Notes under the pieces: model-generated
The model's database searches: none
What the model was told of the DNA's origin: nothing
What the model saw: the letters and a program-made list of their open reading frames with translations, nothing else
Assembly: GCA_041665345.1 (NCBI GenBank)
Contig: JBAYJA010000003.1
Coordinates: 103,202-167,201, forward strand
Origin: Patescibacteria group bacterium
GTDB taxonomy: Bacteria > Patescibacteriota > Patescibacteriia > PEXW01
Reading direction: 5' to 3'
Length of the DNA: 64,000 nucleotides
Part shown: in pieces, positions 1,760 through 36,246 of the stretch
Numbering within the stretch: position 1 is the stretch's first letter
How the letters are laid out: each line of letters begins with the position of its first letter
Translations under genes and position numbers: made by a program

Positions 1760-1807
1760 AATGTCGTCCCGAAAGGGTTGTCGGTTCGAATCCGACCGGC
1801 GGTACCA
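1760..1807 (+). other. tRNA-like 3' fragment (variable arm, T-arm, acceptor 3' strand, ACCA) with no matching 5' acceptor half nearby
   Basis: gtcgg-ttcgaat-ccgac T-arm then cggcggt-a-cca; no 5' partner of the form [ag][ct][ct]g[ct][ct]g was found within about 150 bp upstream (longer-range scan not done); upstream only GC hairpins (ccgcc aaa ggcgg; ccgcc tct ggcgg). Confidence 0.5.
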
Positions 1808-2004
1808 GCTCGTTTCGTGCTCCGCCCTGCGTGTAGCCGTTGCTACGGCTCCACTCCGGACTTTGCACGAAGCCTCGCTTTACCCCATTGATCGGTGCTC
1901 GCCCCAGAGCGGGCTGCGCTTCCGCTCAACGGGGACCCCGAAAAAACCCTGCTCCCCATTCGACTTTGCTCAGGGTGCGCGCCACATCTGTGGGGACCCC
2001 ACAA
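1805..2004 (+). repeat. tRNA-abutting structured repeat, copy A (longest and most diverged), starting at the CCA of the tRNA-like fragment
   Basis: CCAGCTCGTTTCG ... CGAAGCCTCGCTTTACCCCA ... TGCGCGCCACATCTGTGGGGACCCC; same modules as copies B-E. Confidence 0.75.
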
Positions 2005-2122
2005 GATAGAGCAATATGTATGAAACCTATTCAGAATACAATGTTGCTGGAGATACATGCTTCTGATTTTATGAAGCAGTATAAAATTTCCCAGTAGGAG
2101 TCTTGGGATTTCAGGTAAAACT

Positions 2123-2620
2123 ATGTTCTACAACTTCTGTCCAAAGTGCGGACATACATACTCGCATACGGAGAACCCGCACGCACTGGAGTGTAGTCAT
2201 TGCCATTTTACTTTTTTTCAACACTCAAAACCCACTGCGAGTGTGCTCATTGTTGATGGTCGGAAACTCCTGTTAGGCAAACGCCGAGTAGAGCCATCAA
2301 AGGGACAATGGGATGTTATCGGTGGGTTCTTGGAGTATGGCGAATCCCCGTCTGCAGGAGCAGCACGAGAAGCAAAGGAGGAAACTGGCCTCGATGTTGA
2401 GACGCATGATTTCTTAGGCTTTTTTATGGATACGTACGGTTCAGAAAAAGAAGCCACATTGAACATGTGCTTTGTGGGCACTGTTGTGGGCGGTGAACTT
2501 ACGCCAGGTGATGATATTGCAGAACTTCGGTGGTTTGCCATTTCGGATATCCCAAAAGCAATCGCCTTTCAAAATGGCCGCGACATGATTGATGCTTGGC
2601 TAGCGCAACTTTCTCCGTAG
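2123..2620 (+). CDS. NUDIX hydrolase with an N-terminal zinc-ribbon (NudC-like architecture)
   Basis: CPKCGH...CSHCH zinc ribbon; Nudix box GGFLEYGESPSAGAAREAKEETGL. Confidence 0.8.
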   Translation: MFYNFCPKCGHTYSHTENPHALECSHCHFTFFQHSKPTASVLIVDGRKLLLGKRRVEPSKGQWDVIGGFLEYGESPSAGAAREAKEETGLDVETHDFLGFFMDTYGSEKEATLNMCFVGTVVGGELTPGDDIAELRWFAISDIPKAIAFQNGRDMIDAWLAQLSP

Positions 2621-2628
2621 TGGCTTTC

Positions 2629-34369: not shown

Positions 34370-35090
34370 AGTGGTGCTGGGTGAAAGCATGAACAGGTTC
34401 GATTCCGGCTTTGCGGAGCCATTCGTGGAGGGTTGGCAGGTCATCCTGGGCTTTGGCAAACTCCTGTTCCCAAATACGCTTAGGGATACGAAGCTGGCCC
34501 GCCTGGCGGACGACCGTACGGAGACCTTCCCACGTAATGGGTTCTATGGCAAATCCCAGTTGGGTGGCAAAACGCAGGCAGCGGAGGATGCGGGTGTGAT
34601 CTTCAGCAAAGCGTACTTCTGGGTTTCCCACGGTTCGCAGGGTTTTCTGGTTGGTATCCACTTGTCCATGGAAAGGATCAACCAGTTCTCCGGTTCGCGT
34701 ATTGACGGCCATGGCGTTGATGGTGAAGTCCCGGCGCTGCAAGTCAGTTTCCATTGGCAGCTCAGGGTCCGGCACAGCCTGGGTGTCGTGGTACGCGCCG
34801 TTTGCATCTGTTTGTTCACTCCGAGGCAGCGCAATGTCTACAGCTTCATCACCAATGGTCAGCGTGAGCACGCCCCAGCGCGCACCTTTCTCATCAACTG
34901 TACCAATGGACTGAAGCGCAGCACGAAGTTCGTCAATTGGCAGGTTGCGAACCACCAGATCCAGGTCAGTCGTGGGCCGGTTGAGGAGTGCATCCCGAAC
35001 CGATCCACCCACGACAAAAAGTTCTGCTGTTGTGGGTAGCGCTTGGAGGATTTTTTGGATGGTGGGGTGGTTTTTTACTTGGGTGACCAT
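34356..35090 (-). CDS. tRNA nucleotidyltransferase / poly(A) polymerase head-domain protein (short, 244 aa; CCA-adding enzyme family)
   Basis: VVGGSVRDALLNRPTTDLDLVV...RRDFTINAMAV. Confidence 0.7.
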   Translation of the reverse strand: MVTQVKNHPTIQKILQALPTTAELFVVGGSVRDALLNRPTTDLDLVVRNLPIDELRAALQSIGTVDEKGARWGVLTLTIGDEAVDIALPRSEQTDANGAYHDTQAVPDPELPMETDLQRRDFTINAMAVNTRTGELVDPFHGQVDTNQKTLRTVGNPEVRFAEDHTRILRCLRFATQLGFAIEPITWEGLRTVVRQAGQLRIPKRIWEQEFAKAQDDLPTLHEWLRKAGIEPVHAFTQHHYDKK

Positions 35091-35806
35091 ATACGGAAGT
35101 ACTCTTTTGCGAGCAGCGCTGTGACCACATACGCCGGGAATCCAGTAAATGCAGCACGGCCATCCATTTGCGATTTGTGGCAGCAGACGGCGCGGCGTTT
35201 CACTACAGCGTTGATGGGGATAGTGAGGTTGGGCTGGAGAAAGTGGATGGTGCGGGCGTAGTTGGGTGATTTTCGGCGGGCGTACAGGAACGCTTTGGCG
35301 TTGCGCTGGACGCGTGGGGGCAGAACGGCAGCGGCAAATGGGAGCTGCAGTTTTTTGGCCAACTTCCGCCCAACCTCGCCGGCGGCTACGTGGTCATGGT
35401 GGCCAGTAATACCGCAAGGACCAAAGCTGACTACAACCTCTGGCTGGAAAGTTTTTGCCAGGGTGAAAAGTTTTTTACCAAAGGCCACGGCGTGCTTCTG
35501 GAGCTGGCCATCAGGGAAGTTCCAGGTGACCAGCTTCGTGACTCGGAGGATTTTTGCAGCATGTTCCAGCTCTTTGCAACGGCAGGCGGCAAGCTCGTGG
35601 CTGGTCATGGGTAGGCGGACGTGTGAGACGCCCTGCTCCCCTTTCGTGCCGCAGACCAGGAGATTCTGTCCACCCGCCTTTGCATTCGCTGCTAAGGTTC
35701 CGGCCATAACGTAACTCTCATCATCTGGGTGGGCAGTGATGATGAGCAAGCGTTTCCCAAGGATGGGGTGTGATGATGGAACCTGCATAATCCCAGTATA
35801 CCCCAT
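35075..35806 (-). CDS. PIG-L/LmbE-family deacetylase
   Basis: LLIITAHPDDESYVMAG...GITGHHDHVAAG. Confidence 0.75.
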   Translation of the reverse strand: MGYTGIMQVPSSHPILGKRLLIITAHPDDESYVMAGTLAANAKAGGQNLLVCGTKGEQGVSHVRLPMTSHELAACRCKELEHAAKILRVTKLVTWNFPDGQLQKHAVAFGKKLFTLAKTFQPEVVVSFGPCGITGHHDHVAAGEVGRKLAKKLQLPFAAAVLPPRVQRNAKAFLYARRKSPNYARTIHFLQPNLTIPINAVVKRRAVCCHKSQMDGRAAFTGFPAYVVTALLAKEYFRIWSPK

Positions 35807-35855
35807 GGGGGTATTTGCACAGTTCAGGAATACTCGTAGTATGGGGAGTGGGCAT

Positions 35856-36100
35856 GGGCGCGTAGCTCAGTTGGTAGAGCGGGTGTCTTACCCGCCTCCC
35901 GGAGTACGGCGTAGAGTAGCACATTCTTATATTCCTTGATTGTTGAAGCGCGCCTAGCTCAACTGGTTAGAGCAGTCGTCTTATACACGACCGGTTCCTG
36001 GTTCGAGTCCAGGGGCGCGCACCAACAGTTTTGGAGTACAGATCCGTACGGCGGGCAGGTACACACCTGGTCCTAGGTTCGAGTCCTAGCGCGCCCACCA
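35856..36100 (+). tRNA. Split or intron-containing tRNA (Val-like, anticodon probably UAC): 5' half 35856..35891 and 3' half 36061..36100, separated by about 170 nt that include a complete tRNA(UAU)
   Basis: 5' gggcgcg-ta-gctc-agttggta-gagc-g-ggtgt-ctta; 3' ac-acacc-tggtc-ctagg-ttcgagt-cctag-cgcgccc-a-cca; acceptor 7/7 and anticodon stem 5/5 complementary between the halves; intron-flank helices cccgcc/ggcggg and gtacgg/ccgtac. Confidence 0.55.
35948..36024 (+). tRNA. tRNA with anticodon UAU (Ile2-type), nested between the two halves of the split tRNA
   Basis: gcgcgcc-ta-gctc-aactggtta-gagc-a-gtcgt-cttatac-acgac-cggtt-cctgg-ttcgagt-ccagg-ggcgcgc-a-cca; perfect cloverleaf. Confidence 0.85.
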
Positions 36101-36246
36101 GCTCGTTTTGCCCTGCGGTCTCCGCGCGTCCCGCTGCTGCGTGACTCGCTCCAACCATAGGGCAAAGCCTCGCTTTACCCTATGAAGCCGTACTCCCTCC
36201 CTTCGGTCGGTCCGTGCCTGCTTCATGGGGACCCCGAAAGAAAATA
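36098..36246 (+). repeat. tRNA-abutting structured repeat, copy E (starts at the CCA of the split tRNA)
   Basis: CCAGCTCGTTTTG...ggcaaagcctcgctttaccc-tatgaagc-[hairpin]-gcttcat-ggggaccccgaaagaaaa; the stem X/X' (tatgaagc/gcttcata) covaries relative to copies B and C. Confidence 0.7.

Follow-up and report, generated by a model that had tools for sequence, protein, structure and literature searches.

A 64,000-nucleotide stretch of a Patescibacteria group bacterium (GenBank assembly GCA_041665345.1, contig JBAYJA010000003.1, positions 103,202 to 167,201 of the forward strand), which we call the window, contains five copies of a repeat that starts directly after the CCA end of a tRNA gene or tRNA-derived fragment and whose substitutions follow a conserved RNA fold. 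We tentatively interpret this element as an uncatalogued structured RNA family of about 135 nt that forms tRNA 3′ trailers in one Parcubacteria clade, would be freed by the cut at the CCA end, and is probably selected as an RNA; this is the reading we prefer, with a little less than even confidence.

The tRNA genes of the window, called with ARAGORN and Rfam, number five (Leu(UAA), Gly(GCC), Cys(GCA), Leu(GAG) and Ile(UAU)), and each of their loci carries one copy of the element, with none elsewhere. An earlier sequence-only reading had reported five copies, and all were found where it had placed them. A copy consists of GCTCGTTTCG right after CCA, about 51-53 variable bases, CGAAGCCTCGCTTTACCCC, a long interrupted stem and GGGGACCCC, on the strand of the tRNA. 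Allowing up to three mismatches, GAAGCCTCGCTTTACCC occurs four times in the window against 0.08 occurrences expected from shuffled sequence; CCAGCTCGTTTCG is exact at three sites and has one mismatch at a fourth; and the tail GGGGACCCCGAAAAAA occurs six times against 0.83 expected. Chance is excluded as the source of these motif repeats. We built covariance models of the full unit (R1), the 5′ module (R2) and the 3′ module (R3), all scored in bits. In a whole-window scan with filters off, the four 5′ modules scored 68-85 bits and the next match 11.5 bits, and nothing above noise appeared beyond the five known loci.

Copies of the element in the window

The window copies are labelled winA to winE (elements A to E), and loci or contigs of related assemblies L001 to L023. 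The features at the five loci are as follows.

1625-1711 (+): tRNA-Leu(UAA), intact, the "new" gene of locus A (ARAGORN; Rfam tRNA, 56 bits)
1712-1807 (+): structured spacer ending in an older tRNA-Leu(UAA) stub (sequence; fold z-score −3.6)
about 1760-1807 (+): the stub within that spacer, with variable arm, T arm, acceptor 3′ strand and CCA
1808-1939 (+): element A, full length; 5′ module 1808-1882, 3′ module 1883-1939 (R1 123.9, R2 85.2, R3 57.2 bits)
about 1947-2004 (+): extra partial 3′ module in tandem behind A (sequence; weak R3 match at 1954-2000, 17.5 bits)
7326-7400 (−): tRNA-Cys(GCA), with element C directly behind (ARAGORN, Rfam)
7150-7325 (−): element C, a variant with canonical 3′ module 7158-7215 and a different 5′ domain 7216-7322 (R3 74.3 bits; R1 68.3 bits over 7158-7243)
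7059-7133 (−): tRNA-Gly(GCC), intact, the "new" gene of locus B (ARAGORN, Rfam)
6885-7010 (−): tRNA-Gly-derived folded domain (predicted fold; conserved relative to L022)
6751-6884 (−): element B, full length; 5′ module 6810-6884, 3′ module 6751-6809 (R1 132.5, R2 76.1, R3 70.2 bits)
32601-32687 (−): tRNA-Leu(GAG) (ARAGORN, Rfam)
32551-32600 (−): 47-nt spacer plus a second CCA (32551-32553) between tRNA-Leu(GAG) and D (sequence; fold not significant)
32463-32550 (−): element D, short form, 5′ module only (R2 68.2 bits)
35856-35890 (+): outer, interrupted tRNA-Ile(UAU), 5′ part
35891-36059 (+): 169-nt insertion between anticodon nucleotides 35 and 36, holding a complete second tRNA-Ile(UAU) at 35948-36024
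36060-36100 (+): outer tRNA-Ile(UAU), 3′ part, whose CCA end adjoins E
36101-36235 (+): element E, full length; 5′ module 36101-36177, 3′ module 36178-36235 (R1 120.3, R2 72.4, R3 64.1 bits)

Two copies depart from the usual form. In C, the 5′ domain opens with the usual 5′ start in inverted form and with an internal deletion, and tRNA-Gly begins 16 nt past this element. Copy D had been described as a short form that starts at the CCA of tRNA-Leu(GAG) itself; the short form stands, but the tRNA ends at 32601, and the spacer and second CCA intervene. D belongs to a subfamily different from that of the same-locus copy in relatives, its closest 5′ modules being those of L005 and L001 at 77-78%.

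Covariation supports a two-domain RNA fold

Thirteen full copies were aligned with MAFFT over 159 columns, and RNAalifold placed 38 pairs on them, 24 with compensatory changes. In a second alignment, of 23 copies gathered with the covariance model, 92.1% of cells pair, a value somewhat inflated by the fitting of this alignment to the model, compared with 35-47% when partners were slid by 1-3 columns. Both sides change in 30 of the 38 pairs, the covariation score is 0.407 against at most 0.069 in the slid controls, and 0 of 500 shuffles reached the observed values. The independent MAFFT alignment of 13 copies gives the same picture. Compensatory substitutions exceed the phylogenetic background, as expected of a structured RNA. 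A functional RNA had already been proposed from a few compensatory changes in the window; the covariation is strong and extends far beyond those changes, and the fold matches no known family.

The unit, about 135 nt long, is made of two irregular rods joined by an invariant, pyrimidine-rich linker, CCUCGCUUUA, and followed by an ACCCC tail. Its 5′ end is the base after CCA, with the consensus GCUCG, of which the first four bases are unpaired. The first rod comprises P1, a helix of 9-10 bp (GUUUCGnnn / nnnCGAAGC), a short P2 and P3, a variable hairpin. In the second rod, helix a (CCCCAnnnn / nnnnUGGGG) is followed by helix b (GCGUGC / GCGCGC) with a conserved C / CAC internal loop and a variable apical hairpin on top. 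The 3′ end reads GGGG-ACCCC, the tail having the form A-(N)-CCC(C). The core of P1 is compensated in E (GUUUUG/CAAAGC), in L022 (GUUGCU/AGCAGC) and in L020 (GUUUCU../..AGAAGC). Its U6-G pair is invariant, and L010 has UUUU/GGGG; because these G-U pairs would be C-A mismatches on the opposite strand, the fold belongs to the tRNA-sense RNA strand. The unpaired segments (GCUC, CUnC, CUyC, the linker, CUC, CCAC and ACCCC) are nearly invariant and almost all pyrimidine. The two modules are separable, since short forms with only the 5′ module (winD, L010 at 14052, L018 at 6197) and extra partial 3′ modules (winA, L008) both occur.

Known ribozyme folds did not account for the structure. HDV-like and other ribozyme folds were fitted by hand and rejected, since no strand pairs with nucleotides 1-7 as in HDV P1; the CCA|G site fails the hammerhead NUH rule; and none of the Rfam ribozymes (HDV-like, hatchet, twister, pistol, hammerhead, glmS) matched at E ≤ 10 over 1500-7600 and 32300-36400. 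Over the same element loci, Rfam 15 at E up to 10 gave tRNAs and weak, evidently chance matches, and at gathering score over the whole window it gave tRNAs only. This was the check that had been proposed for a known family.

The family in other genomes and its tie to CCA ends

We scanned one genome per species with the pattern GCTCGTTTYG-N(45-60)-AAGCCTCGCTTTA, which contains neither CCA nor tRNA sequence, and obtained six loci. Four come from three Patescibacteria genomes out of Hainich groundwater; the other two lie in a metagenome-assembled genome (MAG) labelled Gammaproteobacteria, on contigs about 86% identical to the window. This "uncultured Gammaproteobacteria" MAG (L003, L006; CAZBMC01 contigs) is syntenic with the Parcubacteria window and probably reflects a binning or labelling error. 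A metagenome scan added three real loci and two chance matches (L007, L011), which are AT-rich, have no CCA and fail the covariance model. Every real match stood behind CCA and in the orientation of the tRNA, as the proposal of a repeat family fused to the CCA ends of tRNAs or their fragments had it, and the genome and metagenome scans showed no real copy away from a tRNA 3′ end or stub. As an unbiased sample of orthologous tRNA loci, syntenic loci of eight relatives were retrieved through RplS homologues (75-94% RplS identity), one of these relatives being named "Candidatus Parcubacteria bacterium". At least eight further Patescibacteria/Parcubacteria assemblies carry related copies. A search through NUDIX homologues added no tRNA loci, the one contig obtained (L023) being from the same population. 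Phage and plasmid records gave no blastn match, and viral contigs no pattern match. The searchable literature on tRNA-trailer structured RNAs in the candidate phyla radiation (CPR) has no description of the element. Group I introns in Patescibacteria tRNA genes have been reported, with no mention of the element (PMC13011429).

Separate 5′-module and 3′-module models were then run over 239 kb. Twenty strong 5′ modules were found, and CCA stands directly ahead of all 20, although it was not part of the search pattern. Nine of them adjoin an intact tRNA (Arg four times, Val, Pro, Asn and Leu twice; eight anticodon types), two adjoin the 3′ half of a split tRNA-Ile, and nine lie behind a tRNA-derived stub. 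Among the stub cases, seven sit 48-255 nt behind a co-oriented intact tRNA and two (L004, L005) have the stub only. At most of the scan loci the unit starts at the ARAGORN end of a tRNA, namely tRNA-Arg-CCG, Arg-UCG (twice), Arg-CCU, Val-UAC, Pro-UGG and Asn-GUU; in all, at least 12 tRNA species carry it. Strong 3′ modules all lie directly behind a 5′ module or a variant 5′ domain (winC, L022 at 11272), the exceptions being two weak partial 3′ modules just past a full element (window 1954-2000, L018 11321-11378). No free-standing copy was found in the 239 kb.

Probable transcription and processing of the element

The element always has the orientation of its tRNA (20 of 20 adjacent and co-oriented). 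Some copies lie between co-oriented tRNAs, with the next tRNA 12-16 nt on (L006, winC), and intrinsic terminators stand behind others (L014/L015, L003). Because of this orientation, this spacing and these terminators, the element is probably transcribed as a tRNA trailer or spacer. A promoter scan found no promoter consensus between tRNA and element. Several elements are followed by a co-oriented gene with no terminator between, and many tRNAs in the same genomes lack the element.

Being GC-rich, with long stems at the 3′ end of tRNA transcription units, the element might be a transcription terminator or a simple stabilising hairpin of tRNA operons, the more so as it alternates with intrinsic terminators at one orthologous site and copy D contains a terminator-like hairpin and U-run. 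However, no U-tract follows the stems, which end in the ACCCC tail and often an A-run, and a Rho-independent terminator scan called none of the full elements. Where the next co-oriented tRNA is 12-16 nt away, a promoter would not fit. The genome also has canonical terminators, sometimes behind an element, and the invariant unpaired sequences and two-domain architecture exceed what a terminator needs. We regard this explanation as very improbable and reject it.

A cis-acting role in tRNA maturation is a more serious rival. The element could direct a precise cut after CCA, freeing the tRNA and insulating it from downstream genes, with RNase Z, RNase P acting through substrate mimicry, another host nuclease or self-cleavage as the cutter. 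The exactness of the CCA|G junction in 20 of 20 cases fits such a role, as do the near-invariance of GCUCG at +1 to +5 and of the linker that P1 brings beside it. One element per tRNA locus is what a cis signal predicts. Between tRNA-Leu(GAG) and the next gene, an element in L020 alternates with an intrinsic terminator in L021 and L016, and the elements that run into a co-oriented gene without a terminator point the same way. The stability of the trailer implies an endonucleolytic cut. On the other side, elements are intact behind dead stubs while the working tRNA, 48-255 nt upstream, has no element at its own CCA, and many tRNAs of the same genomes have no element. No ribozyme model of Rfam matched at E up to 10. 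A small nucleolytic ribozyme leaves a 2′,3′-cyclic phosphate, which on A76 would block aminoacylation. The 3′ strand after a putative 12-bp stack reads UUUA and not RCCA, making a poor RNase P mimic. Overall we consider the cis-acting role unlikely, though well worth keeping in view.

tRNA stubs and probable replacement of tRNA genes

By sequence, the tRNA fragments ahead of the element are what is left of earlier tRNA genes for the same isoacceptor. Ahead of A, the stub agrees at 32 of 48 positions with the 3′ end of tRNA-Leu(UAA) in L018, an intact gene with a short-form element directly behind it; over the last 30 nt, from T arm to CCA, only three positions differ. The stub in L003 retains the variable arm and acceptor strand of a Leu(GAG) allele that L015 still has whole; what is left in L006 is 9 nt of tRNA-Ala, and in L010 three-quarters of a second tRNA-Val(GAC). 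Two dissimilar tRNA-Asn genes, both intact, stand in tandem in L012, and only the second carries an element. Compared with the stub, the intact tRNA upstream is throughout another allele and not a chimera. The window's tRNA-Leu(GAG) is identical at 87 of 87 positions to those of L016 and L022 but matches that of the closest relative, L015, at only 68 of 87; from this mismatch with the relationships of the genomes it would follow that tRNA genes are replaced often, the old 3′ part staying with the element. More generally, tRNA alleles at orthologous loci are out of step with the flanking genes (L003, L015, L016, L018, L020-L022): tRNA-Leu(GAG) is identical at 83-85% RplS identity, and a genome at 94% has a different allele. 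This pattern suggests frequent replacement of tRNA genes by recombination.

The sequence ahead of B had been taken for a tRNA-Gly 3′ fragment. It does derive from tRNA-Gly, but it is the end of a folded domain of about 125 nt and no bare 20-nt scar. The predicted fold of the domain combines an acceptor-like stem and a 9-bp hairpin with a T stem that bears a branched insertion of about 55 nt, and with an acceptor 3′ strand and CCA; over the final 20 nt the sequence equals that of the tRNA-Gly 3′ end. Comparison with L022 shows the domain to be conserved, with four compensatory pair changes in the 9-bp hairpin, yet the elements that follow it in the window and in L022 are of different subfamilies. 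A promoter-like TTCCAA-16-TACAAT lies at 7007-7035 (−), between tRNA-Gly and this domain and after an AT-rich hairpin with a U-run, so that stub and element B might be transcribed on their own. We also considered whether every stub keeps the tRNA "top half" (acceptor plus T arm) for processing; this holds for B, L022 and partly A and fails for D, L003, L005 and L006. Small hairpins of the form YCCCGCC-nnn-GGCGGGR stand in for arms of several stubs (winA 1728-1758, L003, L006, L012). Elements behind stubs are structurally intact, and A and B are among the top scorers (124-132 bits).

Stubs of this kind raise the possibility, put forward in the sequence-only reading, that the loci are attachment-site scars, that is, remnants of tRNA-targeting integrative elements with the fragments as attR-type duplications. 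In its favour, an intact tRNA for the same isoacceptor does precede the tRNA 3′ fragment at A, B, L003, L006 and L010, the identity of the last 20 nt at B is of the expected kind, and an open reading frame (ORF) resembling Major Vault Protein (MVP), absent from relatives, sits directly behind D. The conserved unit, however, is distal to the duplicated segment, where unique chromosomal flank would be expected, and it recurs behind at least 12 unrelated tRNA species. The segments from tRNA to stub are 47-255 nt long, with no ORF, integrase or cargo among the Pfam-scanned window ORFs. On both acceptor strands the intact tRNA differs from the stub, being another allele altogether and not a resident-5′/incoming-3′ chimera, and the unit covaries as an RNA does. 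These observations contradict the proposal, which we rank as the least probable explanation considered. The window otherwise looks like ordinary chromosome: Pfam searches of about 30 ORFs identified gyrA, smc, ftsH, rplS, rpsA, tgt, queA and pyrD, and no integrase, transposase or reverse transcriptase among them.

Probable exchange of copies among loci and the question of mobility

At the site behind rplS, L015 and L020 have an element directly after tRNA-Leu(GAG), L018 has a diverged one, L016 and L021 have a plain intrinsic terminator instead, and L022 is rearranged; the window has a short form of another subfamily, behind the spacer. Near-identical 5′ modules (95-96%) follow different tRNAs, as in winA (Leu stub) and L006 (Ala stub) or L002 (Arg) and L010 (Pro), while copies within one genome are 60-80% alike. 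The 5′ and 3′ modules reassort between copies, and the boundary of exchange is exactly the base after CCA. Judged from these alignments, recombination or gene conversion among copies appears to explain the module exchange. An ORF with a faint LAGLIDADG match lies between rplS and tRNA-Leu(GAG) in L018 (10412-11077) and L021 (10376-11077) and is absent from the window.

The same data could be read as the trace of a non-autonomous, RNA-mediated mobile element, a bacterial counterpart of short interspersed nuclear elements (SINEs) that rides on tRNA promoters. In such a cycle the trailer RNA would be released, a reverse transcriptase encoded elsewhere would prime at its 3′ hairpin-ACCCC end and switch template at the RNA 5′ end to the CCA-3′OH of a mature tRNA, and the cDNA would enter the matching tRNA gene by homology; RNA structure would be conserved because propagation needs it. 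DNA carries no mark after CCA whereas mature tRNAs end there, which makes an RNA-level join the simplest account of insertion after at least 12 tRNAs. The tRNA inserts of the Neurospora Mauriceville retroplasmid reportedly have the same junction, and the reverse transcriptase of that plasmid starts at a 3′ tRNA-like CCA end; the 3′ end of our element is likewise a long stem followed by A-(N)-CCC. The patchy distribution among close relatives, the swapping of subfamilies at one locus and the near-identical 5′ modules after different tRNAs also agree with mobility, as does an A-rich tract behind many copies. An A-run after GGGGACCCC had been pointed out before; it is common in this genome but not conserved in others. 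Against mobility, no reverse transcriptase was found in the Pfam-scanned ORFs of the window or in the gene tables of about 175 kb of related loci, and the 60-80% likeness of copies within a genome leaves no sign of a recent burst. Gene conversion among dispersed copies accounts for the mosaics without transposition, and in sequence the stubs agree with earlier resident alleles of their isoacceptor, not with random 5′-truncated retrocopies. All tRNA genes here encode CCA, so that the junction cannot separate an RNA-level from a DNA-level origin. We judge a mobile element about as unlikely as the cis-acting maturation signal.

A tRNA-linked miniature inverted-repeat transposable element (MITE) had also been proposed, but a classical MITE or insertion sequence (IS)-derived repeat is not supported: the ends GCTCGTTTCG and GGGGACCCC are not mutual inverted repeats, there is no target duplication, nor any flank duplication beyond upstream tRNA sequence, the sites are not varied (all after a tRNA or stub), and the copies, far from near-identical, have diverged with their structure kept. 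An IS200/IS605-type palindromic element or a TnpB/IscB guide-RNA end is a separate possibility, on which the loci bear in part. No tnpA, tnpB or iscB was found near any copy in the Pfam search of window ORFs or the locus gene tables, the hairpins here vary with compensation and are not conserved, and a bare CCA target would not give tRNA specificity.

Preferred interpretation

We return to the preferred interpretation, a structured trailer RNA selected as such. The element would have no promoter of its own and would be transcribed within the tRNA precursor. The endonucleolytic cut that makes the tRNA CCA end would also make the 5′ end of the RNA; a cut at or near CCA|G must exist if so stable a trailer is made, because exonucleases could not trim it. 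The terminal stem with its short ACCCC overhang would provide a nuclease-resistant 3′ end. Selection would act on the released RNA or, at stub loci, possibly on a fusion of tRNA-like domain and element; that elements stay intact behind dead stubs favours selection on the RNA itself or on the whole transcript and not on maturation of the adjacent tRNA. The high scores of A and B and the compensated tRNA-Gly-derived domain ahead of B likewise point to selection that does not depend on the neighbouring tRNA. The RNA would most likely act as a scaffold whose C/U-rich single strands are open to a protein or to an RNA partner rich in purines. The copies would be kept alike, and reshuffled, by recombination or gene conversion among loci. 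Their first placement after the CCA of many tRNAs probably came about by an RNA-level join to mature tRNA 3′ ends, through template switching or ligation, since only mature tRNA, and not DNA, ends after CCA; because CCA is genome-encoded here, such an origin is something that we infer.

Several points weigh against this interpretation. That a discrete RNA exists, that it is transcribed with the tRNA and that it is cut off at CCA|G are deductions from sequence. At least 20 copies per small genome would be unusual for a trans-acting RNA and are typical of cis elements and selfish repeats. The element is dispensable at single loci, being present in L015 and L020, replaced by a terminator in L016 and L021, and rearranged in L022. 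No partner protein or target was identified. The sample covers about 300 kb from roughly 10 genomes, half of the loci having been found through the element itself, and the 23-copy alignment has the inflation noted above. Dispensability at single loci together with the high copy number means that a cis role and selfish, RNA-mediated spread stay serious rivals.

A bolder possibility, which we think improbable, somewhat more so than either of those rivals, is an RNA that lives on tRNA 3′ ends. Its 5′ end would be made by the cut after CCA, or the RNA would itself direct or catalyse that cut, and it would spread by RNA-level rejoining to the CCA-3′OH of other tRNAs, by template switching or ligation, before being copied back into genes. 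If so, it would be a promoter-less bacterial retro-element for which tRNA genes serve as promoter and homing address, and replacement of the tRNA gene ahead of the element would be the host's counter-move. There is a similarly small chance that the element is something categorically new, be it an RNA element that homes to tRNA ends or a ribozyme or guide in the trailer.

The element matters under each of these readings. Patescibacteria have minimal genomes and a poorly understood RNA metabolism, and this covarying, CCA-fused fold is absent from Rfam and from the searchable literature. Should it be a stable trailer RNA, these bacteria would have an abundant new RNA with a dosage coupled to tRNA transcription. 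A processing module would reveal the way in which tRNAs with encoded CCA and structured trailers mature where the usual nuclease set is largely missing. A mobile element would be the bacterial equivalent of SINEs and of chimeras between retroplasmids and tRNAs. In addition, tRNA genes turn over unusually fast at these loci, some of them lying inside the anticodon of older ones, which bears on the evolution of tRNA repertoires in reduced genomes and on tRNA annotation in MAGs.

Nested tRNA genes and neighbouring genes

The "split tRNA" recognised ahead of E is indeed one, a tRNA-Ile(UAU) at 35856-36100 (+). Its halves, 35856-35890 and 36060-36100, when joined, are identical at 76 of 76 positions to the uninterrupted gene of the relative L021. 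In L014 (7610-7789) the window's inner tRNA is itself an interrupted outer gene that holds a third tRNA-Ile(UAU). The insertions in the window and L014 have the same ends, CCCGCCU... and ...GGCGGGCAGG, which pair and extend the anticodon stem. The outer tRNA-Ile halves are decayed in L016 (8280-8400) and L018 (16600-16800). At L010 13640-13730 (−), a tRNA-Phe pseudo-copy has a 30-nt insertion, TCCGCC...GGCGGACAGG, between anticodon stem and loop, with termini that match those of the nested tRNA-Ile insertion. The nested insertion could be a homing, tRNA-carrying intron or a gene-replacement cassette.

Two neighbouring genes stood out. A 1028-amino acid ORF at 29255-32341 (−) combines an MVP shoulder domain (E 7e-15) with vault-repeat domains, a surprise in a Patescibacterium. 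The relatives L003 and L016 lack it at their syntenic loci; in the window it directly follows the truncated element D, behind a good promoter-like TTGACA-18-TAGATT (32456-32427). At 34356-35090 (−) a CCA-adding-type nucleotidyltransferase of 244 amino acids consists of head and neck only, aligning to positions 1-186 of a 396-position model, without the tRNA-binding body and tail; this short form (236-250 amino acids) is conserved in all relatives. A link of the element to either gene was considered and rejected, the MVP-like gene being absent where the element is present and the enzyme present where the element is absent.

Elsewhere in the window, an isolated 12-nt exact match to the most conserved stretch of the element (CGAAGCCTCGCT) lies at 46928-46952 (−) inside an unannotated 330-amino acid ORF; with a weak model score of 10.7 bits, it is probably due to chance. 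Between 49598 and 51479, several repeat families (promoter-like, terminator-like and hairpin segments) have a common period of 723-731 bp and resemble tandem paralogous small genes with conserved flanks.

Comparison with known systems

No known system combines a conserved two-domain fold, a base-exact CCA junction and occurrence after many tRNAs. The nearest in position are RNAs from tRNA 3′ external transcribed spacers (3′ETS) and other trailer fragments. In E. coli, 3′ETS-leuZ derives from the stretch directly behind a tRNA; tRNA processing sets it free, and it has its own function. The element is probably alike in being an RNA from tRNA-adjacent 3′ sequence of the same primary transcript. 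Such fragments are, however, single-locus, short, poorly structured and not a family, whereas the element has a covarying two-domain fold of about 135 nt, follows many tRNAs and is conserved across genomes. The topic of these spacer RNAs and trailer fragments has been reviewed (PMC8166272).

The CCA-ending tRNA-like stubs kept ahead of the element fit the logic of tRNA-guided biogenesis of noncoding RNAs, and MHV68 likewise has two hairpins directly after its tRNA. In the MALAT1-mascRNA, MHV68 tRNA-pre-miRNA and plant tRNA-snoRNA genes, tRNA-processing enzymes define the end of the neighbouring RNA. These systems are eukaryotic or viral, and we know of none in bacteria. Here, by contrast, genuine translational tRNAs are involved, and several stubs have no convincing acceptor stem. 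The Mauriceville/Varkud retroplasmids offer a tRNA including CCA joined exactly to the 5′ end of another RNA, as here, and the 3′ stem with its ACC-like tail resembles the start site of their reverse transcriptase; unlike in that system, no reverse transcriptase or plasmid was seen at our loci, and the copies are chromosomal, diverged and structurally constrained.

Interspersed repeats (REP/BIME, Correia, RPE, MITEs, IS200/IS605 palindromes) are similarly multi-copy, gene-less, hairpin-forming and intergenic, 100-200 bp long and often co-transcribed with their neighbours. The element differs from them in having no terminal inverted repeats or target-site duplication and no near-identical copies, in occurring only after the CCA of a tRNA or stub, and in its G-U pairs and a covariation that reaches the variable hairpins. 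At E. coli tyrT, 178-bp tandem repeats each open with the last ~19 nt of tRNA-Tyr, so that there too CCA-bearing tRNA 3′ fragments head a repeat downstream of a tRNA gene; tyrT is, however, one locus with recent tandem copies, with no evidence of an RNA fold and no spread across tRNAs or genomes. Like tmRNA and the bacterial Y-RNA-like YrlA, the stub loci join a non-decoding, tRNA-derived domain under structural selection to a structured RNA, but neither sequence nor models match, CCA is internal to the fusion, and most copies lie behind real tRNAs.

Among the alternatives first proposed, a co-transcribed 3′-trailer RNA or novel noncoding RNA family fits best. The element lies directly 3′ of its tRNA or stub, on the same strand and probably in the same transcription unit, and by position, strand and fold it would belong with the tRNA-trailer or tRNA-linked noncoding RNAs.

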